Shown here piece after piece: positions 1-49,505 of a stretch of DNA of 49,646 nt. The DNA is from a virus (taxonomy: Duplodnaviria; Heunggongvirae; Uroviricota; Caudoviricetes), in IMG/VR virus record IMGVR_UViG_2740892231_000005; one strand, written 5' to 3'. The stretch's first letter is position 1. Each line of letters begins with the position of its first letter. Position numbers and translations under genes: made by a program. The notes below the pieces were generated by a model that was not told the DNA's origin, did no database searches, and saw only the letters and a list, made by a program, of their open reading frames with translations.

Positions 1-55
1 GACAAAAGTCGGGCGGGATATTCTTGCGAAATCGACCGTTGCTGCCGTTATCGAA
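1..55 (+). repeat. Inverted duplicate of the 3' end of the tail-fibre constant region (reverse complement of 2955..3009), encoding [18 protein letters not shown]
   Basis: Exact match by eye to the reverse complement of 2955..3009; translation identical to residues of the 1929..4310 fibre. Confidence 0.8.
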
Positions 56-190
56 TTTTTTTTTTTTGTAGAACTCGGCACAAGCGGGGAGAAAATACCG
101 TTACTCAGTACAGCGAATACCTGGNNNNNNNNNNGAGAACTCGGCACAAGCGGGGAGAAAATACCGTTACTCAGTACAGCGAATACCTGG
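56..190 (+). other. Anomalous junction: T12 homopolymer (56..67), 55-bp exact direct repeat (70..124 and 136..190) flanking an N10 gap (125..134)
   Basis: Seen directly in sequence; the reading frame stays open across it (FFFF, VELGTSGEKIPLLSTANTW). Confidence 0.9.
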
Positions 191-835
191 ACTAATAGAC
201 AAACATTCAGCGGTGGCCTTTCTGGGGAACTGTCCGGCAATGCCGCTACTGCAACAAAGCTGAAAACAGCACGAAAAATTGCTGGAGTTGGTTTTGATGG
301 TTCTAGCGATATTTCAATTAGTGCCAAAAATGTCAATGCATTTGCACTCCGACAAACAGGTAATACTGTTAATGGTGATACATCCGTTGGATGGAATTGG
401 GATAGTGGTGCATATAACGCCCTGATTGGTGGTGCATCTGCATTAATTCTTCACTTTAATATAAATGCTGGTAGCTGTCCTGCCGTACAATTCCGTGTGA
501 ATTATAAAAATGGTGGCATTTCCTACAGGTCGGCTCGTGATGGTTATGGGTTTGAATTAGGTTGGTCAGATTTCTATACCACGACACGAAAACCTTCAGC
601 GGGAGATGTTGGTGCATATACGCGGGCAGAATGTAACTCAAGGTTTATTACAGGTATTCGCCTTGGCGGTCTGTCATCTGTTCAGACATGGAATGGTCCC
701 GGCTGGTCTGACAGGTCAGGTTATGTCGTTACGGGTTCAGTTAACGGAAACCGTGATGAATTAATTGATACAACACAGGCAAGGCCAATTCAGTATTGCA
801 TTAATGGGACGTGGTATAACGCGGGGAGTATTTAA
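191..835 (+). CDS. Tail-fibre variable C-terminal cassette (Sv'-like), no start codon of its own; in frame with the upstream Sc fragment from position 2
   Basis: Frame-2 ORF open from position 2 to stop at 835; ends ...QYCINGTWYNAGSI, paralogous to the C-terminus of the 1929..4310 fibre (...[13 protein letters not shown]); SGGL motif near the N-terminus. Confidence 0.6.
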   Translation, partial: TNRQTFSGGLSGELSGNAATATKLKTARKIAGVGFDGSSDISISAKNVNAFALRQTGNTVNGDTSVGWNWDSGAYNALIGGASALILHFNINAGSCPAVQFRVNYKNGGISYRSARDGYGFELGWSDFYTTTRKPSAGDVGAYTRAECNSRFITGIRLGGLSSVQTWNGPGWSDRSGYVVTGSVNGNRDELIDTTQARPIQYCINGTWYNAGSI

Positions 836-837
836 CG

Positions 838-1371
838 ATGATGCACTTAAAAAACATTACTGCTGGCAACCCTAAAACAAAAGAGCAATACCAGCTAACA
901 AAGCAATTTAACATCAAATGGCTTTATTCAGATGATGGAAAAAACTGGTATGAGGAACAAAAGAATTTTCAGCCAGACACTTTGAAAATGGTCTATGACC
1001 ATAACGGCGTTATTATTTGTATTGAAAAGGATGTTTCAGCAATTAATCCGGAAGGCGCAAGCGTCGTTGAATTACCTGATATTACAGCAAATCGCCGGGC
1101 TGATATTTCGGGGAAATGGTTGTTCAAAGATGGCGTAGTGATAAAGCGAACTTATACCGAGGAAGAGCAGAGGCAACAAGCGGAAAATGAAAAGCAAAGC
1201 CTGTTGCAACTTGTCAGGGATAAAACCCAGCTATGGGACTCACAGCTACGGCTGGGCATCATTTCCGACGAGAATAAACAAAAATTAACCGAGTGGATGC
1301 TCTATGCGCAGAAAGTCGAATCTACAGACACCTCCAGCCTGCCAGTAACATTTCCCGAACAACCTGAATGA
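838..1371 (+). CDS. Tail fibre assembly chaperone (Tfa/gpU family), partner of the Sv' cassette
   Basis: 177 aa starting MMHLKNITAGN; full-length paralogue of the 1400..1927 product; sits directly after a fibre C-terminal cassette. Confidence 0.8.
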   Translation: MMHLKNITAGNPKTKEQYQLTKQFNIKWLYSDDGKNWYEEQKNFQPDTLKMVYDHNGVIICIEKDVSAINPEGASVVELPDITANRRADISGKWLFKDGVVIKRTYTEEEQRQQAENEKQSLLQLVRDKTQLWDSQLRLGIISDENKQKLTEWMLYAQKVESTDTSSLPVTFPEQPE

Positions 1372-1399
1372 GACAAGGCCCGATAGCGGGCCTTAATTT

Positions 1400-1927
1400 T
1401 TATTCAGGCTTTTGTGGCCATTCAGGATTTGCCGTATCCACACGGCTGACCAGAACACTGTAGCGTTCCCATGCTTCCAGTCGTGTGCGTTCCTCATCCG
1501 TTGCCATATTCAGCCTGACAGCGCGTTCCAGTGGCTGAATAACGCTTTCTGCTTCGGAAAGTAACGCGGCCTTTTGTGATTCGGCCTGTTGTTGCTGTTC
1601 ATCTGCCGTATAAATCCGTTTAACCACAGCTCCGTCCTTAAACATCCACTTACCGGAATCATCGGCCCGACGATTGGCCGTTATATCGGGAACCTCAACG
1701 ACGCTAAAACCTTCAGGGTTAAGCGTGGATGCATCTTTGGTGATGGCGACAATAATATTATTTTCATCGTAAACAATCTTTATTGTGTCTGGCTGAAAGT
1801 TTTTTAATTCCTCATACCAGTTTTTTCCGTCCTCAGAGTAAAGCCAGATAACTCCGTGTTTCTTTGTTAACTCATACTGTTCCAGTGTTTTAGCGTTACC
1901 CGCTTTTATGTTCTTTAAGTGCATCAT
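1400..1927 (-). CDS. Tail fibre assembly chaperone (Tfa/gpU family)
   Basis: 175 aa starting [11 protein letters not shown]; immediately downstream of the tail fibre gene; convergent with the 838..1371 paralogue as in Mu G or P1 C segments. Confidence 0.85.
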
Positions 1928-1928
1928 A

Positions 1929-4310
1929 TTAAACGCTCGCTACATTATACCAGGTGCCATTTATATACTTTTGAACGGGTCTGTAATAAACGCCCGCTAT
2001 ATTATCGGCAGAGTTGGACCCTGTATCCTGAACATTAATACCAGACAATACATGACCTGACGGGCACTGGAAATTCCATGTTTGCCAGTTGTTCACTCCA
2101 TAATATTGCTGTGAACCAAGTCGAACATCTTTCACATATCTGGAATCAAAATTGCCATAGTTGCCGGGAATAACTTGCGAGCCGCAAAGCCAGTTCCCGT
2201 TATTATCCATGTACGCCTGACCATCGGTACCATTGGCTGTCCTTGAGTTATTAATCATGTAGATGCCAAATTGCTTATTTCCCAGCCCACCAATCATAAA
2301 TTTGCGATCAGCATGGTCCTGACGAAGTAATGCCTGCGCACCATCGGTGGATACCGCATTGCGTCCCAAAATAACATTCTGGTCACGCATATGAATCCAC
2401 ATGCCGGTACTACTGTTAATTGCAAAACGGTTTGCAAATATATCCCCTGTAACATCAAGACCATGCCCCATGCTTATCCGACCAGTTCTAAGATTAAGCG
2501 TAAAGGGGCGTAGTGGCCCTATATCACCATTTTCTCCCTCGTTCTCTCGTGTAGGGATGATATGCAGGCATTCTTCAGAACGGCGAAAAATGGCACCAAA
2601 AGATGAATTAAATATCCTCAGTGCATTGACTGTCGATATTTTTACTTCACTGCTGAAAAGGGCTTTAACAAGAACAGACAAAGCATCCCATTTAAGATTC
2701 ATCAGGTCTTTTGTTGTGGTGCTTTGTTTGCTTCTCCATTTGAAATATTCATTGCCGTTGTCGCCTGTTTCAAACCACATGTATGAATCAGTGTCGCTGT
2801 CGGCATCATTTTTAAATCCAATCTTTGCCCAGTCAGTATTTCGAATCCAGGCAAGAATTGAGTCATTTTCAAAAGTAAGCCCACCGGACAAGGTATCGCC
2901 TGTCTTTTGAACAGCGTTACCAGCCTTGTTTACCGTTTCCTGTAAACCGAGGTATTCGATAACGGCAGCAACGGTCGATTTCGCAAGAATATCCCGCCCG
3001 ACTTTTGTCAGGGTTGCCAGGCTAGCGACATCATTCCCCGTAAAATACGGAAACTTGTCTGCCGCAGTAGCAAGCCCGGCCAGCGCCGTCAGGGTGGCAT
3101 CTTTCGGTTGCTTACCCGCAAGCGCGTTAGTCATGGTGGTCGCAAAATTCGGGTCGTTTCCCAGCGCCGCCGCTAACTCGTTCAGCGTATTCAGTGCGTC
3201 AGGTGACGAGTCCACGAGGGCAGCGATCGCAGCCATAACGAAAGCCGTGCTTGCGATTTGGGTATTATTCGTTCCCTGTCGCGCAGTTGGCGTTGTTGGC
3301 GTTCCGGTCAACGCAGGACTGTTTAAGGGCGCTTTCTTGTTCGTTTCATCCATTACCGCCTTGACCGCTTTCGATGTCGCGGCCAGTGTTTCAGACGTGC
3401 TGTTGGTGGAACTACTGAGCTGAGTTATTCCCCTTACAGTCAGTGAAGCTACAGGCACATTTGTTATCTGCTCCCACGAATGCGTGTGATTGGACGGAGC
3501 CTTTCCGGCCGCAAGATCATACGCTGCCTTAACAGCCTTTGGTGTTGCTGCTAGCGTTTCAGACGTGCTGTTGGTGGCACTACTGAGCTGAACAATCCCT
3601 TTTCGCGCTGTGGTAGCGTCCTGTGCGGTGTATTTGCCATTAGCCAGGTCATATGCTGCCTTAACAGCCTTAGGCGTCGCAGCAAGCGTTTCAGACGAGC
3701 TATTGGTGGCGCTGCTAAGTTGAACAAAGCCTTTTGAGGTTAAAGTTGCATCAGGATGATTACGTGATTGTTCATGTTTCACAATGGCTTGCTTAAGCCG
3801 CTTTGCTGAAACAGCAAGGGAATCATCTGTACCGTCATCAATTTCTTGTTCATTGGCAAATCTTGCAACCCCAACAACAGTTTCGGTTGCGGGAGGATTA
3901 ATAAACTCAATATCACCAAATGTAATATTTTTAGTATCAAGAGTCTTGATTGCTATGTCACTTGATATTAAAGCAATAGTAGATGATGCTTTATTTATTA
4001 TTGCTTGTTCTTGCGAGTATACAGCAAACAACGTTCCCTTATTTGTATACAATCCTATTGTATGGACAACATACTCATCTTTACTATCATCCTTCGCCGT
4101 TACATGAATTGTATCAGGGGAAACAACTTTGCCACCTATTGTGGTAAGTCGTTTTATTTCGTTTGTTATATTTGTTTGTGAAGTTGACGTGACATAATAT
4201 CTACTACCTAAACCAACAGAAACAATCTCAACTTTATTTGTTCCTGTTTTGTTGGCATTAACCAGCTCCTGACGCCCGGCGTCAGTCATCGTAAATAATA
4301 ATTTACTCAC
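1929..4310 (-). CDS. Tail fibre protein (constant N-terminal part 2963..4310, variable C-terminal part 1929..2936)
   Basis: 793 aa; three copies of the fibre repeat (QLSSATNS[ST][18 protein letters not shown]); crossover site embedded at codons AAVIE|[10 protein letters not shown]. Confidence 0.9.
2886..2952. repeat. Inverted repeat, copy A (matches the reverse complement of 49580..49646)
   Basis: 67-bp exact inverted identity checked by eye; encodes the shared N-terminus of the variable cassettes ([20 protein letters not shown]). Confidence 0.85.
2937..2962. promoter_or_regulatory. gix/cix-like 26-bp invertase crossover site A (ttcctgtaaacc ga ggtattcgataa)
   Basis: Near-identical to the known Gin crossover site (TTCCTGTAAACCGAGGTTTTGGATAA, recalled from memory); lies at the constant/variable junction of the fibre gene. 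Confidence 0.7.
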
Positions 4311-19726: not shown

Positions 19727-21583
19727 CTATATGGTTACGCCTTTACTTATAACTCTACGGCGTCTTCTACGTATACCTGACGAGTTCTGCACATACACAT
19801 TACCTCGCATTTCCTGTTCGGCAAGCCAGTTAAAATTAGGGTTCAGAATTTCCATCGCGGCAGTTGCATAGTTACGGCAATCAAGAGGCTCGTTACGCTC
19901 GTAGACTTTCACCCACTTTTCTTTTGTCTGCCCATTTTTATATTCAAATATTTTCTTCTCTGATAATAATCCTTTAAAGTATTCGGTATCATATCCTCTG
20001 TCAGAATCTAATGGGAAATGCATATAACCAGGACCAGGATCATGTAGTTTAATTCTTGCCATGATGGTCCCTTTACCATCATCAACCCCCAAATTAAACA
20101 ACATAGCACCCACACGGTTATTATTACTTGGCTTTCCTATAAATGGTAAACCTACCCCACCACGCCCCCTGATAGAGTATATTCGCCTTGATTCTCTCGG
20201 CTTAGTAAAGCGATATACCTCTGTCGTAAAATGCCCACCAGAGTCAATACAAACGGAAGAAATCTGTAATTTTCGACCGTCACGGAATGACCAGCTACGG
20301 AGTAAGTATTCATCAAGTTGTTTCCAGACAACATCTTGTGCGGGATCACCTGGGAATATTTTATATTCTATCCCCCATGACTCCTTACCTTTTCCCCAAC
20401 CGACCAATTCACAAACTAAATACGTGTCCTGTACGTCAACACCAGCACTTAACAATAAAACATCATCTGGTAAAAACTCTTCAAACCTTATTCTGCGTTG
20501 CAACAAGTATTCAGGATCGATATCGTCTTTAGCATCCTCTTTCCATGGCTCACCCAGCTTAAGGTTAATAAACTCCATTAATCCATTTTTATCGCGGTTT
20601 CTGGTTGCTTCCGTAAATTCTTCAACCAGCTCTGACAATGCAACCCACGGGGAGTAAAGACTGTTAATATGAAAACCAACAATACCTTTAACTCCAGTAT
20701 GTTCAGCTATCCATACCCCCTTCGCCAACCAATCAACGTCTGGTTTACCAGATCCGCGCATAATCCCGCCGCACTCACAGCACTCATATCTGGCCGTTTC
20801 CGGTAACGCCTCACCTGAATCGCTCTTATCCCATCTGACTTGCGACCATTTCATCACCTGCATGGTGCCACAACATGGGCAAGGAACATGGTAGTAACGC
20901 TGATCGGAGAGCTTAAACCACTTGTGGATTTTGCTCGTTTCCTCCAAAACAGGAGTAGAAACAAAAACTTTCTTACGATTATGAAAGTTGGTAGTACGCT
21001 GAATACCTAGTTTTAGTGGGTCGCCCTCCTGCGTCACACCGTAACGATCAATCTCATCAGCTAACAGTATTCGAATTGGCCTGGATGCAAGACCTGCTGG
21101 GGAATTAGCACCAACAAGTGCTATATATCCACCAGCGTAATGCTTCATACGTATAGTCGTGCTGGACTTTTTGGCTGCACCGCGCCCCTCTTTCCCTTCA
21201 TGCAGCTTGTGTTTCAAACCAGGGGAATATTTGAACGTCGGATCAATACGCTCTTTTGAAAAAGCCTCAGCCGCCTCTACCGTTGGATAAATCATCAACT
21301 GAGGAGATGGCTCCTGATCTGCAAAGTAACCCATAACATTTAGCTGTAATTCGGATTTACCAATTTGCGAGCTACATTGCATCACTACTGTTTCTGTATC
21401 AGCGTCACCAATAACATCCATTGGTTCACGCAAATATGGCACTCGGCTTGTACGCCACGGCCCTGGCTCTGGAGACGTTCCCGGCGCTACATGACGATAC
21501 TTATCAGCCCATTCGGAAACAGTTAGCCGTGATTTAGGGCGAAGCGCACGGAAAAAAGCGGTGCTCCATACTGTTTCGCCCAT
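19727..21583 (-). CDS. terL: Terminase large subunit, lambda GpA family
   Basis: 618 aa; Cys cluster (CPCCG...CCECG) and overall GpA-like organisation. Confidence 0.9.
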   Translation of the reverse strand: MGETVWSTAFFRALRPKSRLTVSEWADKYRHVAPGTSPEPGPWRTSRVPYLREPMDVIGDADTETVVMQCSSQIGKSELQLNVMGYFADQEPSPQLMIYPTVEAAEAFSKERIDPTFKYSPGLKHKLHEGKEGRGAAKKSSTTIRMKHYAGGYIALVGANSPAGLASRPIRILLADEIDRYGVTQEGDPLKLGIQRTTNFHNRKKVFVSTPVLEETSKIHKWFKLSDQRYYHVPCPCCGTMQVMKWSQVRWDKSDSGEALPETARYECCECGGIMRGSGKPDVDWLAKGVWIAEHTGVKGIVGFHINSLYSPWVALSELVEEFTEATRNRDKNGLMEFINLKLGEPWKEDAKDDIDPEYLLQRRIRFEEFLPDDVLLLSAGVDVQDTYLVCELVGWGKGKESWGIEYKIFPGDPAQDVVWKQLDEYLLRSWSFRDGRKLQISSVCIDSGGHFTTEVYRFTKPRESRRIYSIRGRGGVGLPFIGKPSNNNRVGAMLFNLGVDDGKGTIMARIKLHDPGPGYMHFPLDSDRGYDTEYFKGLLSEKKIFEYKNGQTKEKWVKVYERNEPLDCRNYATAAMEILNPNFNWLAEQEMRGNVYVQNSSGIRRRRRRVISKGVTI

Positions 21584-21588
21584 GAGGT

Positions 21589-22149
21589 TTATTCTTCCTG
21601 CTTAATAAATCGGGATTCCTGGAGCGCCTGAAGCGCAAAATTAATCTCGTCTTCAATAATGCGTTCGATCTCCCTGGCTGTTTTGCCTTCACAACGGGGA
21701 GCTGCTCTTGGAGCAATACTAAATAAGCGGCTACGCAATTCATTAGCTGCCAGAAATGCATCATCCCTGACCGCATCTTTAGCGATGAGAGAGCCTTCCT
21801 TTTCTTCAAATTCAAGGCGTTTCAGCTTTGCCTGATAAATTTTTTCTGCGGTCTTAGCCTTGTTGAATTGCACCGCAACACCGGAAGTACCACCAGCTAA
21901 TCCGGCATCATCAGCGGGTAACTCTGGTTGTTCCGAAGATATCCCATGCCCTCTTTTTCCATTTTCAGCAGATACCTCACGACCAACCTGTCGGCTCGCT
22001 TCATAAGCCGCACTGGCTTTATCAAAATCCAGCTTGCCGCTTTTCAGCACTGGAATGCGACCGGAACGACAGAGCTTCGTAACCATTGCCGGAGAAATAC
22101 CTTTCCGGCGAGCAAACTCTGACTTACTGACGATGGCCATTACTTGCAA
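21589..22149 (-). CDS. Terminase small subunit (Nu1-like, HTH)
   Basis: 186 aa; N-terminal HTH (SKSEFARRKGISPAMVTKLCRSGRIP); immediately upstream of terL. Confidence 0.65.
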   Translation of the reverse strand: MQVMAIVSKSEFARRKGISPAMVTKLCRSGRIPVLKSGKLDFDKASAAYEASRQVGREVSAENGKRGHGISSEQPELPADDAGLAGGTSGVAVQFNKAKTAEKIYQAKLKRLEFEEKEGSLIAKDAVRDDAFLAANELRSRLFSIAPRAAPRCEGKTAREIERIIEDEINFALQALQESRFIKQEE

Positions 22150-22730
22150 CCATTAGCAAGATACTGAACAAATCCCTCATGCGTTTCATGCGCGTCGTGG
22201 TACTGACGATAAACATCCAGCAACAATGCAATTTCCATATCCGTCGCGGGAATACGTTCTTTATCAATAGCCAGGTACTTAATTTGAACAACAGGGGAAG
22301 AATTATCGTCTTCTTCCTGCGGCTGTTCATCGCTTAACATTTCGTCAAGCTCTGCATCATTAAACCCAAGCAGATCAATATCAAAATCATCATCCATTAA
22401 CTCTTTGACTTCTTCGGCCAGAAGCTGCATATCCCAGCCAGCATTTAAGGCCAGCTTGTTATCTGCAATCCTGTAAGCCTTCTTCTGTTTTTCAGAAAGG
22501 TTACTCAACCGAATCGCCGGAACTTTATCCATTTCCAGAATTTCGGCTGCTGCAAGCCGACCATGCCCCGCAATCAGTTCATTCTTTTCATCGATCAGCA
22601 CAGGATTAGTGAAACCGAACTCACGGATACTGTTCACCAACTGTTCAACCTGCTCATCTGAATGAGTCCGTGAATTTTTGGCGTATCTGAGCAGCTTACC
22701 GACTGGTAAATATTCGATTTTTAGAGCCAT
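22140..22730 (-). CDS. ParB-like nuclease-domain protein (ParB/Srx fold)
   Basis: 196 aa; ParB N-domain motifs (LIAGHGRLAAA, KKAYRIADNKLALNAGW); paralogue of 25397..26020. Confidence 0.75.
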   Translation of the reverse strand: MALKIEYLPVGKLLRYAKNSRTHSDEQVEQLVNSIREFGFTNPVLIDEKNELIAGHGRLAAAEILEMDKVPAIRLSNLSEKQKKAYRIADNKLALNAGWDMQLLAEEVKELMDDDFDIDLLGFNDAELDEMLSDEQPQEEDDNSSPVVQIKYLAIDKERIPATDMEIALLLDVYRQYHDAHETHEGFVQYLANGCK

Positions 22731-23287: not shown

Positions 23288-24007
23288 TTAACGAGAGAAG
23301 GTCTTAGAAAGAATGTCATCAATAGCCTTTGTGACTTCATCAGCAAACGCATCCTCACCAGCACGCAGCGCCACGCCATGCCAATCAAGACGCTGCGAAT
23401 AGTTAGGTTGCTGGATAAACGTAAGGATCAACGTAGGACGCCGCCCAACGCGCTGCCAGACGCCTGGTTGAAGCGGGTTACTTGTACCAGGTCGAACAAC
23501 AAAAAACTCCGTAGGCTTGCCCTGACGGCGATTTTGATGCGCATCTCGCTGAACTCTTAGGCCAGATAAGACCTGCTGTAATTGCCCCCGCGAAATATTC
23601 CCGTATTTATCCAGCTTTGCGCCGGGACCAGGAGCAAGCTGCCAGCCGTTAGGCAAATATCCACCAGCCCTTAGCGCCCCTTCTGAGCGTTTGTACTGTC
23701 GTTGGCCACCTTCGATTTGCGGAGTCAACGTTACAGGGGCTGGCGTTCCTCCCCATTCACGAGCATACACAATGGCTGTAGGATCACTCTTCTTTGCGGC
23801 CAAAACGTAAGTAGAGTTCTGAATCCACGGCGTGGGCCTGTCAAATACCCGATTAATTTCATTCTTAATCGCAGCCTGAGAAGCCTTTGCCGTTCTGGTT
23901 GCCGCAAGCGCCATTGCGAACGGCAATTCGCGTTCTTCAAGGCGCTGGAGTTGTCGTTGAATATCCTGAGAAGAAAAATCCATCTTTATCTCAATTCTGT
24001 CAGCCAC
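23288..24007 (-). CDS. Hypothetical protein
   Basis: 239-aa ORF embedded in the ParB-like cluster; no recognisable domain. Confidence 0.45.
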   Translation of the reverse strand: MADRIEIKMDFSSQDIQRQLQRLEERELPFAMALAATRTAKASQAAIKNEINRVFDRPTPWIQNSTYVLAAKKSDPTAIVYAREWGGTPAPVTLTPQIEGGQRQYKRSEGALRAGGYLPNGWQLAPGPGAKLDKYGNISRGQLQQVLSGLRVQRDAHQNRRQGKPTEFFVVRPGTSNPLQPGVWQRVGRRPTLILTFIQQPNYSQRLDWHGVALRAGEDAFADEVTKAIDDILSKTFSR

Positions 24008-24023
24008 CAGCGCCTCCTACACA

Positions 24024-25403
24024 CTACTTAATCAACGGCCGGAAAGCCGCCAGCACATCATCAGATCGTCCGATTGTTGAACCACCAGGCAACGGCAACT
24101 CAAACTCAAAACGAACAGCTTTCTCCAGACTCGCCCAACTAAGGGAATCATCGTTAATGACGTGCAAATACCAGCTCTTACAGTTGAATATTGACCGCTT
24201 AATCCTGAAACCATGTACACGACACAACTGCTTCACTTCATCATCAGAATGAAACTTCTGGTAAAACCAGTGCCCCTTCCGGTACAACGCGGTAAAACCG
24301 TTATGATCAATAAAATAAAGCCGGCTTTTGGAACTCGCCGCTTGTGTTTGCTTCAGGACTGTTTCCAGCTCTCCACGGCTACGGCCAGAAAAGAATATTG
24401 ACCCACCAGCTTTACACAGGCCTTTCAGAACCGTCAGAACGGACCATTCAGCCTCGACACTATCGACCGAGTTCAAAACGCTATCGCAAATCACGTAGTC
24501 GTAACGCCCTCGCGTTTTTAAGTCGTCCACCAGCGTATCAATCATTCGGTTTGTTGCAGCCCTATCCAGAGTGTTTCCAGCGCCCTTACGGCGGAAAAGC
24601 TCGAGATCATGCAGGTTATATCCCTTTGCCCTGAGCATTCGCGCGTAGTCTCCCTGCCCCGAACCAAAATCAATTCCTCTTGGCGTCTTGGCAATAATCG
24701 GGAGGATCAACGACTCATACAGATTTGATTTCAGGCTGCCACCATTACGCAACCGCATAAGCTGCGCATACGTCTGGATGTATGTTGTTTTCTCCAGATG
24801 AGAATACTCAAATACACCATAAGTTTTATTCAGATAACTTTGGTATTTTTCCTTCTCAACATCAGGGATCACAAACACCGTTAGCGGTGTGCGCGTCATT
24901 TTCGCTGCTAATGCATACTGAGCACAGTGAATAACCTCACCAGACTGAGTAGCAACACAACCACCCCACGGACCATACTTGATAACCAGTTCCGCTATGT
25001 TCTTTCGAACATATGCCATTTTCGCGCGCATATTGCCTGAGATCTGGCTTGCCGATACCTGAACAAAACCATGCTTATCTTCCAGACCGGACACCCTGCA
25101 ACGCTCATCTCCGCTATCAAAATCCGTTCCGTTATGCAGTTGGTTAAACCGTACTTCGTCGTATACCGTCGTTTCACAGGGCAACACATACACCGCAGCA
25201 CGCGTTATTCCCAATTTACGTAGCGCCTTCGTCCTTTGGTGTCCCGCCACCAGCAAATCGCCGCGCACTATCAATGGCTTCACAAGCCCCAGCTCCCTGA
25301 CGCTTTCCGCCAGCCTCGCAAGATCATCCTCACCGATAAAACGCGGGTTATATTCCGCGCCGCGTAGGTGCGTTATGTCGTAATTGAGGTGAAGCATCAG
25401 CAC
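24024..25403 (-). CDS. ParB-like N-terminal domain fused to a class I SAM-dependent methyltransferase domain
   Basis: 459 aa; N-terminus LVAGHQRTKALRKLG (ParB-like); C-terminal half with GIDFGSGQGDYARML (motif I) and DYVICDSVLNSV; no DPPY/NPPY motif seen. Confidence 0.7.
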   Translation of the reverse strand: MLMLHLNYDITHLRGAEYNPRFIGEDDLARLAESVRELGLVKPLIVRGDLLVAGHQRTKALRKLGITRAAVYVLPCETTVYDEVRFNQLHNGTDFDSGDERCRVSGLEDKHGFVQVSASQISGNMRAKMAYVRKNIAELVIKYGPWGGCVATQSGEVIHCAQYALAAKMTRTPLTVFVIPDVEKEKYQSYLNKTYGVFEYSHLEKTTYIQTYAQLMRLRNGGSLKSNLYESLILPIIAKTPRGIDFGSGQGDYARMLRAKGYNLHDLELFRRKGAGNTLDRAATNRMIDTLVDDLKTRGRYDYVICDSVLNSVDSVEAEWSVLTVLKGLCKAGGSIFFSGRSRGELETVLKQTQAASSKSRLYFIDHNGFTALYRKGHWFYQKFHSDDEVKQLCRVHGFRIKRSIFNCKSWYLHVINDDSLSWASLEKAVRFEFELPLPGGSTIGRSDDVLAAFRPLIK

Positions 25404-26020
25404 ACCTCCCCAGCCAGCAATGCGGATACAAATCCGATATAGCTGCCATTATCATCAACATAACGAGACACCGCGCAGTCAAAACGATCCGCTTCCTCAT
25501 CCGTTGCCGGGATTTTATGACCTCCAAATGACAGGTACTGAACTTTTACGCCTGATTTGGCCTCATCCTTCTCAAATGGGATATCCATACCTTCTGTGTC
25601 ATCGTAGACCGCCACACTCAATAAGTTATCCAGTTCGCGCTGAGTAAAACCAATTGAGTCCAGAGCAAAATCATCGGCCGCAAGATCTGCAAGCTCCGCG
25701 CTTAACAACTCTTCATCCCAACCAGCATTCAGCGGAATACGGTTGTCGGCCAGACGATATGCCTTCTTCTGATTCTCCGTTAGCCCAGCCAGAACAATGC
25801 AGGGAACATCATCCATCCCCAACTGAGTGGCCGCAGCAATTCGACCATGACCAGCAATTACAACGTTGTTCTCGTCTATCAGGATCGGATTAGTCCATCC
25901 GTACTCCTGTATGCTGGCAACAATCTGATCTACCTGCTCCACGGAGTGTGTGCGAGCGTTCTTTTCATAACCAATCAACACAGAAAGTGGTAAAGAAACC
26001 ACATTAAGTTGTTTTGTCAT
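25397..26020 (-). CDS. ParB-like nuclease-domain protein, paralogue 2
   Basis: 207 aa; VIAGHGRIAAA, KKAYRLADNRIPLNAGW; about 50 percent identical by eye to the 22140..22730 product. Confidence 0.75.
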   Translation of the reverse strand: MTKQLNVVSLPLSVLIGYEKNARTHSVEQVDQIVASIQEYGWTNPILIDENNVVIAGHGRIAAATQLGMDDVPCIVLAGLTENQKKAYRLADNRIPLNAGWDEELLSAELADLAADDFALDSIGFTQRELDNLLSVAVYDDTEGMDIPFEKDEAKSGVKVQYLSFGGHKIPATDEEADRFDCAVSRYVDDNGSYIGFVSALLAGEVC

Positions 26021-26254
26021 GCCGTTTATCCGCTAAAATCCCCTCGCTTGTGCAAGCAAGTGGGCCTCGGTTTGTATCCACGGCACCCTGTGGGTATGAA
26101 TGACTGTCGTCAGGTCGCAACTGACGGCGGTCGCCCACCTTCCAGTAATAAAAAAGCCACCAGCATTAACTCCACAATGAGCTGGAGTTAATGAGGCAGC
26201 TTTGGTTTGCGCATTATCGCAGCCCCTGATAAGCACAAGAGCTGCTGTAATGCG

Positions 26255-26968
26255 TTACTCTGGTATCAAACAGATGTGGCCGTTATTTACCTCAATGCGA
26301 GAGTATCTCGGCTTACCATCCACGATTCCGGTAATGACAAGTTCGCCATCAGGCGACCATTCTTCTTTGTCGTCTTCAAGTACCGCGCCTTCTGGCAGAT
26401 CAATACAGGCAAAAACAGGACAGCCAGGATGACGTTTATCCTCCATCGCAATCAGCATCGACTCACCGAACCACTCTGTAGTAGCACGGCCATCAGCCGC
26501 CTGATAGTGAATCAGATACTGGTTTTCGCCATTTGCATACTGAGCACGGGCTTGAACTTCTCCCCATTCGTCACTGATACGCATTGTTACCAGTTGGGAT
26601 AATTCAAACTTAAACGGAACAGACTCTGCACCAATAGATATCGGTGAGTTTTCTCGCTGCTCTGGACCTTCACGCTTCACAATTTGAACATCTTTGACGA
26701 GCCAATCACCTGTGTTATCTACTTTTCGATACTCATCGGTATCAGGTAACTCAATAACACTCATCCCATCCGGGCAAAGCAACGATACATCTTTCGAAAC
26801 ACTGCGGATAATGCCGTTATTGTCATACATCATCTTTAAAGTGTGAGGCTGAAATTTCTTCTGCTCCTCATACCAATTTCTTCCGTCTTCAGTAAAAAGC
26901 GGTAGCACATCTGGATGTTTGCCGCGGGGATCAATAAGCGGCGCACTGATATTTTTTAAATGCATCAT
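26255..26968 (-). CDS. Orphan protein with tail-fibre-assembly (Tfa) N-terminal domain and an unrelated 130-aa C-terminal domain
   Basis: 237 aa; first ~105 aa align with both Tfa paralogues (MMHLKNI...GRNWYEEQKKFQPHTLKMMYD...SVIELPD). Confidence 0.6.
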   Translation of the reverse strand: MMHLKNISAPLIDPRGKHPDVLPLFTEDGRNWYEEQKKFQPHTLKMMYDNNGIIRSVSKDVSLLCPDGMSVIELPDTDEYRKVDNTGDWLVKDVQIVKREGPEQRENSPISIGAESVPFKFELSQLVTMRISDEWGEVQARAQYANGENQYLIHYQAADGRATTEWFGESMLIAMEDKRHPGCPVFACIDLPEGAVLEDDKEEWSPDGELVITGIVDGKPRYSRIEVNNGHICLIPE

Positions 26969-26984
26969 ATAAATAACCCTACAT

Positions 26985-27149
26985 CTATCTCATTGACTTG
27001 AATGAAACGCACCCTGACCGCAATTGCTCCCGCTTACGCCGAAAAGCTCTCTGCGCCACTAAGATGCGCCACAGGACACCAGCAATAACCACCAGCGAGA
27101 TACAAAAACACACGGCCACAACCATCAGAAAAATGCCAACACCATTCAT
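26985..27149 (-). CDS. Small hydrophobic peptide (54 aa), not in the ORF track
   Basis: Hand translation gives MNGVGIFLMVVAVCFCISLVVIAGVLWRILVAQRAFRRKREQLR...; ATGA start/stop overlap with the upstream ORF. Confidence 0.3.
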   Translation of the reverse strand: MNGVGIFLMVVAVCFCISLVVIAGVLWRILVAQRAFRRKREQLRSGCVSFKSMR

Positions 27150-27352
27150 GAAACTATCCATTCTTCAATGAATATCTCCAGTAATGTCAAGAGATACGCC
27201 GTCCCCAGCGCGGTTCCTACCGATATAGCTAAAACAAACCTCAAAGATAACGAGGTGTCTTTCGCTTTTCTCCAGACGTAAGCGCCAGCCAGAAATACCA
27301 ACAAATCTCTTATTGGAAGCGGAAACCAGAACAAATCACTCGGCAAGTCCAC
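27146..27352 (-). CDS. Small membrane protein
   Basis: 68 aa with two hydrophobic segments. Confidence 0.45.
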   Translation of the reverse strand: MDLPSDLFWFPLPIRDLLVFLAGAYVWRKAKDTSLSLRFVLAISVGTALGTAYLLTLLEIFIEEWIVS

Positions 27353-28351: not shown

Positions 28352-28466
28352 CGGGTTATCTCCGGTTTAACCAGGGCGGGTATCGCTCGGTTTCGGTTAT
28401 AACCTTAGGAAATTTTTTCCCACCCGTAAAGCACTTTTTATATAAATCTATAATTATATAATTCTA
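28352..28466 (-). promoter_or_regulatory. Repeated promoter/operator/leader cassette, copy 1
   Basis: About 110 bp near-identical to 35372..35490 and 45515..45630; ends in the TATAATTATA palindrome (28449..28458). Confidence 0.6.
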
Positions 28467-29051
28467 TGACACTTGCCAGAGAGCATCATGCAACTGGATA
28501 CCTCCGTTGCACTGGTTGCCCCAGCCATGCCAGCCATCAGGTAAATCACCGCGAGCAAACAGCTCAATACGAGGAACATCACCTAACAGTCTTACCAGCT
28601 TGTCACGAACCACATCAGGCTTCCGTGAATGTTCCAGACGAGGCGATGTAAACGACTGAATGATCCCCGCATCAAGGCGAGTCGGCAGTTTGCCTTTTAC
28701 CGCAAACAAGCAATCTTCACTGTTCGCACGAGTCATATGCCCCATCCCCATCACCAGCTTATCTGGCTGTCGGCTACCACATTTGTTCCATGTGAAGCCC
28801 TTCATGGTCATCAGCCTGAATCCCCATGCTTTCACCACCAGCAACGCTTCTTCTGGCTGAGTCGGAACCCACCACATGGCCAACAAACACGATTCAGGAT
28901 TAGCAAGCTGCCAGACAGGAATACGAGCAATCTCCTCAGCTTTCATCGTTGGATACTTAAAACCAGCTCCACGATTCCCATCCTTACACTTGTCTTTGTA
29001 TTCCCAGGGGGGATCTGCATAAATCAGATTAAACAATGCAATTGCCTCCAT
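28464..29051 (-). CDS. N6-adenine DNA methyltransferase, MT-A70 family
   Basis: 195 aa; DPPW motif in the N-terminus (LIYADPPWEY). Confidence 0.8.
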   Translation of the reverse strand: MEAIALFNLIYADPPWEYKDKCKDGNRGAGFKYPTMKAEEIARIPVWQLANPESCLLAMWWVPTQPEEALLVVKAWGFRLMTMKGFTWNKCGSRQPDKLVMGMGHMTRANSEDCLFAVKGKLPTRLDAGIIQSFTSPRLEHSRKPDVVRDKLVRLLGDVPRIELFARGDLPDGWHGWGNQCNGGIQLHDALWQVS

Positions 29052-29349: not shown

Positions 29350-29425
29350 GAGAGTGAATTGGTGGCCCCTACCGGATTTGAACCGATGACCGTGCGATTA
29401 TGAGTCGCCTGCTCTAACCACTGAG
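29350..29425 (-). tRNA. tRNA with CAU anticodon (Ile2/ileX-like, or Met)
   Basis: 76 nt; cloverleaf folds by hand (acceptor GGCCCCT/AGGGGCC, D-stem GCTC/GAGC, T-stem ATCGG/CCGGT, CCA end); one mismatch at the top of the anticodon stem. Confidence 0.8.
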
Positions 29426-29604
29426 CTAAGGGGCCATATTTGATCTGTTTGTCTGGTGTGGCGCCGCGCACGAAAATCCCAGCCAATAAATTCAGGATTT
29501 TTGGGCGCGGCGGCATATCAGACAAACATGGTTGATGCATGCGCTAATGAGAAAAGCGCATAGAATGTTGTAACTATATATTTATATAATTATAGAAATA
29601 TATA

Positions 29605-29814: not shown

Positions 29815-30007
29815 TGCCCACCTCTTTTGTCACTTCTATACGCCGCTCCGCAGTGGCTTTTACGGCGGCTGCATTCTCATTAATGCGCTGCTTTTCAGCT
29901 TCATCTTCGGCCTTTTCTCGCCCCTTCATACGACCAAAACCAAACGCGCCGAATGCAACCAATATAATTGTGCCAATAAATGACAAAACGGCCTTCAAAC
30001 CAGTCAT
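29729..30007 (-). CDS. i-spanin (Rz-like)
   Basis: 92 aa; N-terminal transmembrane segment then charged coiled-coil; follows the endolysin gene. Confidence 0.65.
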   Translation of the reverse strand: MTGLKAVLSFIGTIILVAFGAFGFGRMKGREKAEDEAEKQRINENAAAVKATAERRIEVTKEVGNVQQSVNHMADDDVDRELRESWKRPGGG

Positions 30008-30546
30008 ACCACCACTCGCTCTTTCATCCAGCCGTAGACAAACGACTCATTCGCCTCGCGCTTCTCCGCCAACTCCAGATAGCGTTCGCCCTGCGTACAG
30101 TTCAGCGACGTCAGCATCACCCGTTCGCCGTCTTTTCCCCGATTCCCAAGATAAGCACGCAGCGCATTAATGGTACGTGGACCGATTCGTCCATCTGCAT
30201 CCAAATCGGGATACAGCTTCCCACGCAGATTGAACACATTCAGCCAGCGTTGAAGCATTTTGGACGCCACTGTTGGCCCCATATTCACACCGGTATCACA
30301 CAGCTCTGCCGCAATATCAGAGGATAATGCGGCCACCTGATCAAAGCGTGGTCCGTACCAGTAATCAGCCTCAAGGATTTCTAGTGCCTGTTCGCGGGTT
30401 AAATCGCGCATATCGCCACGGTATCCATGAGCACGGGCAGTGTTCTGAGTAATGCCCCACTTTGTTGGGCCTCCCTTGTCGTCAGGGTGATCCACATAGC
30501 CGCCCTCTTTTCCAAGAATGCTGTTAAAAATCTCATCTTTGGTCAT
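30004..30546 (-). CDS. Endolysin, GH108 muramidase with peptidoglycan-binding domain
   Basis: 180 aa; EGGYVDHPDDKGGPTKWGIT matches the GH108 signature (recalled). Confidence 0.8.
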   Translation of the reverse strand: MTKDEIFNSILGKEGGYVDHPDDKGGPTKWGITQNTARAHGYRGDMRDLTREQALEILEADYWYGPRFDQVAALSSDIAAELCDTGVNMGPTVASKMLQRWLNVFNLRGKLYPDLDADGRIGPRTINALRAYLGNRGKDGERVMLTSLNCTQGERYLELAEKREANESFVYGWMKERVVV

Positions 30547-30865
30547 GATTAAATCCTAATGCGTCAACTATCCGCGCCAGATTGCCCCTGAAATACAGAA
30601 CAACGATGCAGATAATCAGATTTCCAATAACCACCAGCCAGTGGGATTCTTGATAAAGACCGAACACATAACGGAAGGGAACATTGGCGTATACAATGAC
30701 GTAGATATAAGCCAGAAAGGAAACAAATGGACGATGCCTGGAGTCTTTCCGTCGATAAAGCATCAGCGCCATTACTATTACTGTGCAAAGCACCGCATTA
30801 ATCAGTGCTGACGGGTCACTGCTTACCATTTGAACCCCCTCCACGTAAGCGGGAAAGCATTCCAA
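30533..30865 (-). CDS. Membrane protein, putative holin or antiholin
   Basis: 110 aa with about three hydrophobic segments between the holin and endolysin genes. Confidence 0.45.
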   Translation of the reverse strand: MECFPAYVEGVQMVSSDPSALINAVLCTVIVMALMLYRRKDSRHRPFVSFLAYIYVIVYANVPFRYVFGLYQESHWLVVIGNLIICIVVLYFRGNLARIVDALGFNHDQR

Positions 30866-31211
30866 AGATGCTACCGAGATCCTGGCTGTTTACGAACGTG
30901 AGGATTTTAATTGTCAATGCAGCCACAATAACCGCACCAAGCGCATCAAGAGGTCGATCGTTGTAGCTGGTCCATTTGGCAAGAAATGAGCCAACTAACG
31001 GCGCTCCAATCACTCCAACAATGAACGATGTAAAGAAATAGCCAATCAGCTTGAGACGGCTAATATTCACCGCTGTAGCAACATAGAAAACAGCGCCAGC
31101 AAATGCCCCGAATACAACGCCGTAATCAATACCAGTTGCAATACCAAAAACGCTGGCACCCATCAGGCCACCAGCAGCAACGGCCGTACCGGAAATTGGT
31201 TCTGCTGACAT
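30816..31211 (-). CDS. Putative holin
   Basis: 131 aa; multiple Gly/Ala-rich transmembrane segments; first gene of the lysis cassette. Confidence 0.55.
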   Translation of the reverse strand: MSAEPISGTAVAAGGLMGASVFGIATGIDYGVVFGAFAGAVFYVATAVNISRLKLIGYFFTSFIVGVIGAPLVGSFLAKWTSYNDRPLDALGAVIVAALTIKILTFVNSQDLGSIFGMLSRLRGGGSNGKQ

Positions 31212-38064: not shown

Positions 38065-38721
38065 ATGAAAAGCAACGACGAGAACATCAAGAAAGAAATA
38101 GGTCTGCGCATTCAGACTCTACGGAAACAATCCGGCATGACTGCCGGAGATCTCCAGCAAGTCACTGGAATAGGCTTAAGCACCTTGCAGAACTATGAGG
38201 CCGGATTAAGACAACCATCTATACCTGCCATCAAGAAAATCGCGCACGCCCTGAAAGCATCAGCGCCTTATATCGCGTGCTTAACAGATAACCCGTTCCC
38301 ACCCCAGAATACTAACGCTCCTGTTATTCCTGGGCTTGTAGCTATAAAAAATGACATAGCATCGCACGCCGGAGAAAAGCCAGTGCTGGCGATAGAACAG
38401 GAGATTCTACGAAGCAAGAACATCAACCCATCGTCTCTGTCAGTTCTCCAGAGCAACGATGAGTTAATGTCACCAACAATATCCCCTGGCTCCCAAGTCC
38501 TGATTAATACAGACGATACAGAGATTCATGAGGGGATCTATGCCCTTGAAGACAGAAATGGCCTGGTTGTTTTGAGGCACTGTAGAGTCATACCGGGTGA
38601 CAATGCTGTTATGCTGTCAACCGAAAGGGATGCTGAAATGAACACTAAGCATCTGAATAATGAGGAATTTAAGCGTTATAAAGTTCTTGGCCGCGTAGTT
38701 AGTGTTGTCAACTGGTTATGA
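38065..38721 (+). CDS. cI: CI-like repressor (N-terminal XRE HTH, C-terminal S24/LexA-like domain)
   Basis: 218 aa; HTH (LRKQSGMTAGDLQQVTGIGLSTLQNYEAG); C-terminal domain with S24-like features. Confidence 0.8.
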   Translation: MKSNDENIKKEIGLRIQTLRKQSGMTAGDLQQVTGIGLSTLQNYEAGLRQPSIPAIKKIAHALKASAPYIACLTDNPFPPQNTNAPVIPGLVAIKNDIASHAGEKPVLAIEQEILRSKNINPSSLSVLQSNDELMSPTISPGSQVLINTDDTEIHEGIYALEDRNGLVVLRHCRVIPGDNAVMLSTERDAEMNTKHLNNEEFKRYKVLGRVVSVVNWL

Positions 38722-39320: not shown

Positions 39321-39338
39321 CACATGGAGTCTCGACAA

Positions 39339-39992
39339 ATGACTATCTCTGTAGGTATTTTCAACGGAAAAGGCGGCGTAACCAAATCAACAATTGCCCG
39401 TGCTTTAGCAGTTGCTTATGCAAAGGCTGGCTGGAATGTATGCCTGATCGATATGGATGTGCTTAACGGAACGGTAACGCGTTGGGTACAACGCAGAATG
39501 GCCAACAATATCGAACCAGCAATCGCGGCGCAGCCGTGCGGCACACCATCACAAGTCCAGAAAATCATCGAATCAGAAGTATACGACTTGGTTATCGTCG
39601 ATGGCGGTGCCTACGCATCTGAATCAGTACCGAAGCTCTCTGAATTTCTGGATATGGTTATTTTGCCAACCAGATTCTCTACCGATGACCTGGAAACCAC
39701 CGTTAACACAGCTCACGGCATCGTTAAAAAGGGTGTACCAATCAAGAAAATTTGCATGGTGTTTTCCGGCGCGGCTGAAAACGAAGCTGACTATATTGAA
39801 GCCCAAGAGTACCTGGCTAATACGCCATACTTTGTTGTCGATAAGTACATTCCCCACAAGCCAGCTCTGAGCAAAGCTCAGGATAAGGGCTTAAGCCTCA
39901 TTGAGTGCTCATACGTTGCGCCACGCAAAAAGGCAGACGACGTTATTCAGGGGATTATCAACCAGCTTGAGGCTCTGACTACTGCCGCGTAA
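39339..39992 (+). CDS. parA: ParA-family partition ATPase
   Basis: Deviant Walker A GKGGVTKST; start chosen at the second ATG with GGAG RBS (ORF track gives 39324). Confidence 0.8.
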   Translation: MTISVGIFNGKGGVTKSTIARALAVAYAKAGWNVCLIDMDVLNGTVTRWVQRRMANNIEPAIAAQPCGTPSQVQKIIESEVYDLVIVDGGAYASESVPKLSEFLDMVILPTRFSTDDLETTVNTAHGIVKKGVPIKKICMVFSGAAENEADYIEAQEYLANTPYFVVDKYIPHKPALSKAQDKGLSLIECSYVAPRKKADDVIQGIINQLEALTTAA

Positions 39993-47786: not shown

Positions 47787-48779
47787 TTAATGTTGGAGTG
47801 ATTTCCAGGTCTTTCTTAGCCTGTTATAACGCTGCTCAACGAGGGAGCGTAAATATGCAAGGTCAGCACCAGGATACATGCCATCAGCAAATTCCTGGCT
47901 AACCTCTCTAGTGATTTGATGGCGAAGTTCGGCCTCTCCCTTTTCCTGAACAAGACGCGCAGCTCTCTCCGCTGCTTTCTGTTTTGCCTTTATCTCTCTG
48001 GCCGTCTTCCTCTGACGCCATACATTCTCCATCTGCTCCTGAATAACAATACGCTTATAATCAGCCTCCGTTATCGCTTTTTTAAGCCGTTCGCTATTCT
48101 TCGCATTGAAGTAATTAAGTTTCTGGCTAACCGCACGTCTCCATGCTTGTTCAGTAATACCAACTGTTTCCAGCAGTTGATCACGAATCTCGATTTTCGC
48201 TGGCCAATACTGTTTATTCACCCGATCCCAGCGACGTTCATAATCAATAAAACCTAACTCTTTCAGTTGCGACAACGCCCTTGTACAGCGCGTTATAGAC
48301 TTGTTCCCAGCTTCGGATACGGTAGACAGGCCGCAAAAATCAGCCAACGCCTCAGCACTGGCCAGAACCCGCTTAGAAATGATGTTTACATGGTGCAAAA
48401 TCGCAGCAATCACAGCATTAATCGCCCGACGACGATGCTCGTTTATCCGGCGTTTCCGCTCTGACGGTTGATTAACGTAGAACGCAACCTCACACGTAAG
48501 ATCACGACCATTAATGCGCTGTAAAGCATCAGATAACACCAGCGGCAGCTTGTGCGTATGGTGCTTTGGAGGCTGGAACTCCGGCGACAAATTACAAACG
48601 TAAGCTGAACGTAGAGACGGCATTGGTCTATCCATATGTTCGCTCTTGCGTCCACGGAAAACCAACGTATAATGGGAGTTGTCGAGGCGCCCATGGTTAG
48701 TTGTTGGTTTTCCTTTCCGTGGATGTCGCAAGAAGCCCGCAGATTTATCTGCGGGCTTTTTGTTTCCATATCTGGTCAC
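47787..48779 (-). CDS. repA: Plasmid replication initiator, IncFII RepA1-like
   Basis: 330 aa; SITRCTRALSQLKELGFIDYERRWD resembles the recalled RepA1 segment SITRATRALTFLSELGLITYQTEYD. Confidence 0.75.
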   Translation of the reverse strand: MTRYGNKKPADKSAGFLRHPRKGKPTTNHGRLDNSHYTLVFRGRKSEHMDRPMPSLRSAYVCNLSPEFQPPKHHTHKLPLVLSDALQRINGRDLTCEVAFYVNQPSERKRRINEHRRRAINAVIAAILHHVNIISKRVLASAEALADFCGLSTVSEAGNKSITRCTRALSQLKELGFIDYERRWDRVNKQYWPAKIEIRDQLLETVGITEQAWRRAVSQKLNYFNAKNSERLKKAITEADYKRIVIQEQMENVWRQRKTAREIKAKQKAAERAARLVQEKGEAELRHQITREVSQEFADGMYPGADLAYLRSLVEQRYNRLRKTWKSLQH

Positions 48780-48950: not shown

Positions 48951-49505
48951 TCAATGATTCCCAGCCGGAAACCTGCGGTAAAGCGTGGATAAGGTAACAT
49001 CGAAGATAATCGCTATCCGCTTACGTGAAACACCATTCGCAATAAGCCTTCCGATCTGTTCCCATTGCTCTGGTGCCAATTTTGAGCGGCGTCCTCCTAT
49101 CCTGCCGTTAGCCCTTGCCACCGCCAATCCTGCACGCGTTCTTTCAATCATATTTTCCCGCTCCATCTCTGCGACTGCACTCAGCATCGTGTAGGCAAAG
49201 CGGCCAATTGAAGTGCTAATTTTTATCCCTTCCGTAATCGAAATAAACTCAATGTTGTTTGATAAAAAATAGTTTAGTAAATCAACAAGATGAATCAGAG
49301 AACGCCCCATTCGGTCCAGCTTCCAGACAATAACCGTATCGCCCGGCCGTAACACCTTCAGTAGCTTATCAAGTCCTGGTCGTTTTGATTTAGCACCGGA
49401 TATTTTATCTTCAAAAATCCGGTCACATCCTGAACTCCTGAGCGCCTCCAATTGTAATTCCAAATTCTGGTCAAAAGTTGACACCCTCGCATAACCATAT
49501 TGCAT
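48951..49505 (-). CDS. Serine DNA invertase, Gin/Cin/Pin/Hin family
   Basis: 184 aa; N-terminal YARVSTFDQ with catalytic Ser; alignable by eye with Gin along the full length. Confidence 0.95.
   Translation of the reverse strand: MQYGYARVSTFDQNLELQLEALRSSGCDRIFEDKISGAKSKRPGLDKLLKVLRPGDTVIVWKLDRMGRSLIHLVDLLNYFLSNNIEFISITEGIKISTSIGRFAYTMLSAVAEMERENMIERTRAGLAVARANGRIGGRRSKLAPEQWEQIGRLIANGVSRKRIAIIFDVTLSTLYRRFPAGNH

Follow-up and report, generated by a model that had tools for sequence, protein, structure and literature searches.

What does a gene encode that opens like a tail fibre assembly (Tfa) chaperone, closes like something else and has no fibre gene beside it? The question is raised by the minus-strand, ATG-started open reading frame (ORF) at 26255-26968, 237 amino acids (aa) long in the ORF list, of the virus record IMGVR_UViG_2740892231_000005 (Caudoviricetes), a stretch of 49,646 nucleotides, here called the window, that is essentially a whole circular ~49-kb IncFII phage-plasmid. 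The original prediction saw a Tfa N-terminal domain fused to a novel C-terminal domain and offered a remnant of a third fibre cassette, a tip adhesin in the manner of T2 gp38 or a domain-swapped chaperone as explanations. We lean towards reading the product as one two-domain accessory protein, in which an L33-like, HspQ-like barrel is the effector and the Tfa-derived N-terminal domain (N-domain) has been exapted as a binding module; that the fusion is a functional, selected protein is very probable. The domain architecture is a new one built from known modules. The parts of the fused gene and the two resident tfa genes used as comparators are as follows.

26255-26968 (-): complete chimeric ORF, 237 aa, with Tfa-N-derived domain, linker and L33-like domain
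26672-26968 (-): residues 1-99, Tfa N-terminal (fibre-tip-binding) domain, placed by phrog_136, 5yvq_B, an AlphaFold2 (AF2) model, alignment and tree
26618-26671 (-): residues 100-117, flexible linker with the fusion joint, placed by a predicted local distance difference test (pLDDT) of 28-37 in the full-length model and by protein and DNA alignments with unfused alleles
26408-26617 (-): residues 118-187, L33-like beta-barrel core (phrog_8618 core), predicted to be SH3/Tudor-like and closest to HspQ/YccV
26255-26407 (-): residues 188-237 and stop codon, variable C-terminal extension, the phrog_8025 tail of the 130-aa L33-like subfamily (low-confidence model)
1400-1927 (-): comparator Tfa, 175 aa, full-length Caudo_TAP match (E 1.5e-37), directly downstream of the fibre gene at 1929-4310
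838-1371 (+): comparator Tfa, 177 aa, full-length Caudo_TAP match (E 1.1e-36), inside the invertible fibre segment

The Tfa-derived and the L33-like half

As had been predicted for the first ~105 residues, the N-domain aligns with both resident fibre chaperones: over residues 1 to ~100, BLASTP gives 40% identity (E 6e-34) to the Tfa at 1400-1927 and 47% identity (E 5e-35) to the one at 838-1371. This similarity stops near residue 100-105, and residues ~103-237 bear no likeness to Tfa, in agreement with the predicted unrelatedness of the C-terminal part. Further matches of the N-domain are to phrog_136 (residues 1-103, E 1e-29) and to the Mu gpU chain of PDB 5yvq_B (E 9e-25), and the AF2 model gives it pLDDT values of 77-92 save at residues 11-20. 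Of the 131 positions of the Pfam profile Caudo_TAP, it matches just 2-53 (25 bits); both resident Tfa proteins match positions 2-131 with 126-129 bits.

Mu gpU (TfaMu, 5yvq chain B; Caudo_TAP, PF02413) is ~50% identical to the fused protein over residues 1 to ~100, and the MMHLKNI start and a tfa-type ribosome-binding region are common to both. The fused protein differs from gpU in lacking the conserved C-terminal helical region (Pfam positions 54-131) and carrying an unrelated C-terminal domain instead, in having no fibre gene adjoining its own, and in two segments of the N-domain. Seven residues are deleted within the segment 'NPKTxEQYxLTKxxxVxW' (in its 'EQYxLTKxxxVxW' part), and 'PDTDEYRKVD' has taken the place of a second segment, of 10 residues. 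The 12 true Tfa proteins compared have the two segments in near-invariant form, and each of the three fused lineages has both changes. In alignment and tree the N-domains of these lineages are monophyletic, with one common indel and the same motif changes, which shows that this lineage had a single origin. Across 334 plasmid and 188 phage records, the closest true Tfa is at most 53% identical in tblastn, and in the N-domain alignment the maximum is 56%; the absence of any true Tfa above 53-56% identity argues that there is no recent donor, and searches of phage, plasmid and IMG/VR collections turned up no recent donor tfa for the N-block.

In PMC9608196, which cites North et al. 2019, the N-domain of Mu Tfa is described as binding the distal fibre and staying on the virion, and its conserved C-terminal helical region as driving trimerisation and fibre assembly; TfaMu is also reported to bind lipopolysaccharide (PMC10579305). 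Because only the N-part of Tfa is kept and the C-terminal chaperone region is lost, we infer that the fused protein cannot act as a Tfa-type chaperone, and the domain-swapped chaperone of the original prediction finds no footing, the lost part being the very region to which that account of Mu Tfa assigns trimerisation and assembly. Other Tfa variants with inserted domains (P0036: Tfa N-domain, DUF4376 and the Caudo_TAP C-terminal region) likewise combine the same Mu-type N-domain with another module, indicating that the Tfa N-domain is a mobile building block; these variants keep the C-terminal chaperone region and a fibre-gene neighbour, whereas the fused protein has neither.

The C-terminal domain proved not to be novel. 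Residues 103-222 match PHROG 1935 over its full length (positions 2-116 of 116, E 2e-63), the core lies in PHROG 8618, and an exhaustive search returned abundant stand-alone homologues of 60-130 aa in 322 representative clusters. The domain is thus a full-length family member with hundreds of homologues, and not the frame-shifted debris lacking conserved homologues that the original prediction had named as its own refutation. The conserved core residues are F119, S132, E134, G136, R141, Y151, Y155, G160 and W166, and the core pattern F, S-x-E-x-G, R, Y, Y, G, W is present in the fused protein; the extension at 188-237 is absent from the 60-100-aa L33-like members. Relatives, small proteins of lambdoid, P2-like and Burkholderia phages, include phiP27 L33, 'L33' of the P2-like ESSI2 phages and Bcep176 gp32, and the C-terminal domain had no match in Pfam, NCBIfam or PADLOC.

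The genomic position of this family is recurrent. In phiP27 and several (four) unrelated lambdoid prophage types, the L33-like gene follows the holin, endolysin and spanin genes and lies just before the gene for the small terminase subunit; sipho-, myo- and P2-like phages have stand-alone copies that are not near fibre genes. The order in the window is holins and endolysin (30004-31211), fused gene, terS/terL (19727-22149). The fused form therefore shares with phiP27 L33 and PHROG 1935 both the lysis-terminase position and the conserved residues, but lacks a start codon and Shine-Dalgarno sequence (SD) of its own for the L33-like part. That part is 90-95% identical to the stand-alone L33-like protein encoded at the same locus of sister plasmids. 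Fusion to Tfa is found in 3 of the 228 L33-like family clusters.

The promiscuity of the L33-like barrel is far from confined to the Tfa fusion: this module also occurs as tandem duplicates, fused to Lcl_C (PF07603), or N-terminal in longer repeat-containing proteins, examples of these contexts being P0026 (L015 232-903), P0055, P0370-P0375, P0096 and P0114. Matches of the C-terminal tail to giant WD40 and Ig-repeat proteins were rejected as spurious, since a short 'SPDGxLVTGxxDG' motif accounts for them.

A fused and an unfused allele at one locus

Besides many draft assemblies and six PLSDB plasmids, the Yersinia phages vB_YpM_41/44 encode the same or a near-identical 237-aa ORF. Both phages form plaques, and in the ~4 kb searched around the gene the window is 97-98% identical to them. 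Related ~47-50-kb non-mobilizable E. coli plasmids bear either the fused gene or an unfused allele. Most sister plasmids have an unfused L33-like gene in the same slot and with the same neighbours, the pair of small membrane-protein ORFs on the upstream side and the ParB/Srx, ParB-methyltransferase and 239-aa genes on the downstream side; the 48.5-kb plasmid of E. coli ATCC 25922 belongs to the same family and has the unfused allele. DNA alignment of the window with the unfused allele gives 97% identity upstream and 98% in the barrel core, and between them ~370 bp (26650-27018) stand in place of ~75 bp. The fused and unfused forms are thereby shown to be alleles of one locus. The original prediction was also right to place the gene far from the fibre locus: the pair of small membrane-protein ORFs precedes it, ParB/Srx-type genes follow it, none of the adjoining genes encodes a fibre, and the fibre locus (~1-4310) lies 22-25 kb away, either way round the circle. 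Two features describe the replaced region.

26969-26985 (-): translation-initiation region, with AGGG at 26977-26980, an 8-nt spacer and ATGATG
26650-27018 (-): block specific to fused alleles, ~370 bp, delimited by aligning the window DNA to unfused L005 and fused L007

The ~75 bp of the unfused allele hold a terminator-like hairpin, an SD and the ATG; the ~370-bp block holds the last codons of the 58-aa upstream ORF, a tfa ribosome-binding region and the Tfa-N coding sequence. The fused allele keeps all of the stand-alone ORF in frame, with the ATG of that ORF now reading CCA and its SD being replaced by Tfa-N coding sequence. The joint is located at the Tfa domain boundary, and there PEQRENSPISIG in the linker corresponds to MEKKEDKPIAIG of the stand-alone L33-like protein. 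The AGGG/8-nt/ATGATG region aligns with the SD and spacer upstream of both resident tfa genes, and the same ribosome-binding arrangement stands upstream of a diverged fused copy in Escherichia albertii. The N-block is carried on two L33 backbones, for between two fused alleles the block is 95% and the barrel core 81% identical, and the barrel core is 98% identical to that of an unfused allele. Since the imported block begins within the 58-aa ORF, the 3' end of that ORF is not the same in the two kinds of allele.

It is proposed that a tfa block of ~370 bp, consisting of the ribosome-binding region and the N-domain, was inserted in frame ahead of a complete phiP27-L33-like gene, and that the insertion replaced the upstream terminator, SD and start codon of that gene. 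The site of insertion would be a variable slot for accessory genes, with the lysis genes on one side and the terminase on the other. In vB_YpM_39 the same slot is filled by an unrelated 135-aa gene (L055 1814-2221 (-)) with a weak DUF2513-like match (E 1.5e-3, under the Pfam cut-off), which indicates a swappable accessory-gene slot. The earlier suggestion of a third fibre cassette remnant is borne out insofar as the 5' module, including its ribosome-binding region, comes from a tfa gene; the conserved non-fibre flanks, the indel relative to the unfused allele, the at most 56% identity to true Tfa and the purifying selection described below argue that it is not a decaying remnant.

Comparison of the window with the E. 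albertii fused copy, whose N-domain is 55% identical and whose AT-rich DNA retains ~100 stop-free codons, gave a ratio of non-synonymous to synonymous substitution rates (dN/dS) of 0.12 for the N-domain; per site, synonymous changes exceed non-synonymous ones (Fisher p 2e-10). The ORF is uninterrupted in every fused allele examined. Judged from these sequences, the N-domain is shown to be under purifying selection.

The public annotation implies a different history. RefSeq/PGAP (NZ_CP023368.1 20980-21690) records a tfa pseudogene, 'incomplete, missing C-terminus', plus a 141-aa hypothetical protein starting at GTG codon 97; in GenBank drafts the 237-aa product is named 'tail fiber assembly protein', and in the phage records it is hypothetical. 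On the RefSeq account, the 5' part is a dead, truncated tfa pseudogene that reads by chance in frame into the L33-like gene, and only the L33-like product is functional, either with passive N-terminal baggage or from a GTG97 start. Beyond the PGAP annotation itself, such a history would suit a recombination-prone slot in which other chimeras arise, a minority allele, and degradation of segments conserved in true Tfa. Yet there is no SD ahead of GTG97 and the stand-alone SD and ATG are gone, the reading frame is single and open in every fused allele, the joint falls at the Tfa domain boundary, and the N-domain is confidently modelled as folded. Moreover, the tfa ribosome-binding region is kept even in the 45%-diverged, AT-rich E. 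albertii copy with its dN/dS of 0.12. We therefore regard a chance read-through of a dead tfa gene as unlikely.

Several observations nevertheless weigh against the preferred reading, that of a selected two-domain accessory protein. The dN/dS of the N-domain is 0.54 between two close fused alleles, which differ by 13 substitutions only, and this value also favours the pseudogene account. The fused allele is in the minority: of 5,426 complete E. coli genomes, 62 are carriers, and 6 of these have it. Plaque-forming vB_YpM_39 has another gene in the slot, so the fused protein is dispensable. Junk-like singleton chimeras (P0006, P0025, P0047 and P0048) occur at L33-like loci. Two of the helices that are said to aid fibre binding, alpha1 and alpha4, appear to be affected, the first by the deletion and the second by the rewritten segment. 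The association with fibre modules is loose: 5 of 6 fused plasmids have Mu-type Tfa genes, as do 22 of 44 unfused ones, a non-significant difference (one-sided p 0.135) between samples that are not independent; in pEC488-4 the fusion occurs together with a different fibre/Tfa module; and the E. albertii fused copy sits in a non-phage plasmid region. Finally, the L33-like homologues are all named 'hypothetical protein', the family being uncharacterised.

Fold and possible roles of the fused protein

In the full-length AF2 model the C-terminal half has pLDDT <50, and the C-terminal part was remodelled separately with a 119-sequence alignment. In that model the core forms an SH3/Tudor-like barrel and the tail a low-confidence hairpin, and the models suggest that the two domains fold independently. 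HspQ (PDB 5ycq) is the top match of the barrel by two structure-comparison methods, the predicted five/six-stranded SH3-like barrel being superposable on it. HspQ/YccV (PF08755) is a Lon specificity factor and hemimethylated-DNA-binding protein. Alignment of the barrel family with the HspQ family by hhalign gave 63% probability (E 7e-5) with an HspQ profile that is shallow because the relatives listed are all at least 78% identical to HspQ. The barrel differs from HspQ in lacking its ~16-residue insertion, is ~20% identical to it and has no match to PF08755 at the level of hidden Markov models; no PF08755 match was found among the 119 L33-like members, and a profile search aimed at bridging the L33-like family to PF08755 had no YccV proteins among its matches. 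Searched with a profile of the family alignment, PDB sequences yielded chance matches only (E >= 0.38), and a BFVD structure search only uncharacterised small phage proteins. The barrel is a possible homologue of HspQ/YccV. Its probable role is that of an adaptor in the cytoplasm, binding protein or DNA; an HspQ-like mode of action is possible but doubtful.

In the two-domain accessory protein that we favour, the L33-like barrel would stay the effector, and the Tfa-derived domain would have been exapted as a targeting or binding module. A tentative candidate for the partner of the N-domain is the distal part of a Mu/P2-type fibre, own or foreign; the partner could also be a new one, because the two segments most conserved in true Tfa are deleted or rewritten. 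Docking of the fused protein at fibre tips is mechanistically possible but unsupported by the co-occurrence figures given above. Carried further, the client-binding domain of a chaperone may have been repurposed to bring an HspQ-like barrel to fibre tips, where it would decorate the virion or mark the fibres of a competitor for sequestration or Lon-dependent degradation. We consider this very unlikely; if true, it would amount to a novel way for a phage to interfere with fibre assembly, encoded in a swappable phage-plasmid slot.

A related proposal makes the protein an anti-fibre decoy: the N-domain would bind fibre tips or Tfa sites of co-assembling Mu/P2/P1-type phages, and the barrel would block maturation or deliver the bound protein to a host protease, in the manner of an HspQ-like Lon adaptor, thus favouring the resident phage-plasmid. 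In its favour, the accessory slot is hypervariable and takes unrelated cargo in other genomes, the fused gene is uncoupled from the resident fibre type, and a diverged copy exists on a non-phage plasmid. The N-domain has diverged exactly in the putative fibre-contact segments, as a changed specificity would predict, and the predicted barrel fold resembles HspQ/YccV domains, which modulate AAA+ proteases. That homology is unproven, however, no PADLOC-DB defence model matched at E <= 0.01, and the gene, placed behind late-region genes, has no convincing promoter to itself. An anti-fibre decoy is accordingly quite unlikely in our view.

The remaining possibility, that of a fibre-associated protein, would make the product a swapped-domain chaperone or a virion tip adhesin like T2 gp38, serving an invertible tip or a lost third fibre. 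Its N-domain is indeed homologous to the fibre-binding domain of Mu gpU, which remains on the fibre tip, the gene lies in the late region, and Mu-type fibre modules are present in most of the fused plasmids (the 5 of 6 given above). Against this, that co-occurrence is non-significant, the C-terminal Tfa region needed for trimerisation and assembly is missing, and both resident fibres already have a cognate full-length Tfa; vB_YpM_39, moreover, plates on the same host without the fused protein. The adhesin of the original prediction fares no better. T2/T6 gp38-type adhesins have C-terminal glycine-rich motifs that form a receptor-binding polyglycine sandwich. The fused protein has no glycine-rich adhesin motifs, T2/T6 gp38 structures are not among the top fold matches listed, and the C-terminal domain is modelled as a small, cytoplasmic-type SH3/Tudor-like barrel that occurs alone, away from fibre genes, in phages of different tail types. 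A fibre-associated role is highly improbable.

The selection signal suggests a functional fusion; if so, a Tfa N-domain works here without its chaperone region, in what amounts to a natural experiment. The fusion would also offer the first experimental handle on the L33-like family, which is present beside the packaging genes of hundreds of enterobacterial prophages, for the binding partner of residues 1-100 would indicate where the barrel acts. On the same condition the public labels, 'tail fiber assembly protein' on the one hand and pseudogene plus hypothetical protein on the other, mislead predictions of host range and receptor-binding proteins, and are corrected here.

Transcription and surroundings

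Two further features border the fused gene.

26147-26254 (-): two strong hairpins directly 3' of the stop codon (RNA fold), the second followed by a U-run and intrinsic-terminator-like
27146-27352 and 26985-27161 (-): two overlapping small hydrophobic ORFs, 68 aa and 58 aa, directly upstream, 16 nt from the fused gene

The 3' double hairpin has a predicted energy of -54 kcal/mol (z = -7.0 versus shuffles), and its sequence is kept in fused and unfused alleles. The 58- and 68-aa small membrane ORFs are kept in L005, L007 and L008, are unannotated in RefSeq plasmids and had no family match. The fused gene is probably co-transcribed with them and probably ends a short late-region transcription unit; a promoter scan gave matches no more frequent than in shuffled sequence.

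The phage-plasmid family is present in ~1% of the complete E. coli genomes (the 62 carriers noted above), and vB_YpM_39/41/44 are plaque-forming isolates that belong to it. The window combines a myovirus-type tail and a lambda-like GpA terminase with plasmid genes, a repressor and a fibre module.

47787-48779 (-): IncFII-family RepA
39324-39992 (+): ParA
38065-38721 (+): cI-like repressor
48951-49505 (-): Gin/Cin-type serine invertase (Resolvase and HTH_7), across the circular junction from the fibre module
497-835 (+), 838-1371 (+), 1400-1927 (-) and 1929-4310 (-): members of the invertible fibre module

This is a Mu G-segment-like invertible module with two alternative fibre tips, each with its own Tfa. 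Perfect inverted repeats of 56 bp, at 1-56 and 2954-3009, flank the invertible fibre-tip/Tfa segment, one of them lying inside the fibre gene and the other at the very start of the window, where it is possibly cut.

ParB-like and DNA-modification genes are unusually dense beside the packaging genes. Three ParB/Srx N-domain proteins and an MT-A70 methyltransferase are encoded at 22140-22730 (-), 24024-25403 (-), 25397-26020 (-) and 28464-29051 (-), between the lysis genes and the terminase, and one of the three ParB/Srx proteins is fused to an S-adenosylmethionine (SAM) methyltransferase domain. The label of PHROG 1924, 'minor tail protein', may be wrong: the 239-aa protein at 23288-24007 (-), which matches it with E 2.5e-97, is encoded far away from the tail genes, in the ParB-like group upstream of the terminase. 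A single tRNA-Met (CAT) at 29360-29435 (-) lies between the lysis genes and the MT-A70 gene.

On the E. albertii plasmid CP117576 (L006 2254-4729), the fused copy lies 520 bp downstream of a gene for a 459-aa radical-SAM/SPASM protein, near IS66 elements; this protein has a partial match to prokaryotic viperins (E 2e-15 over ~120-190 residues), which is probably generic radical-SAM similarity. In pEC488-4 (L056 442-2401, NZ_CP109878.1), IS5 lies beside a short (~240-aa), maybe interrupted, coding sequence for a VgrG/Pvc8-family baseplate hub, and the single, different fibre/Tfa module has no invertase; pEC488-4 may be a defective phage-plasmid.

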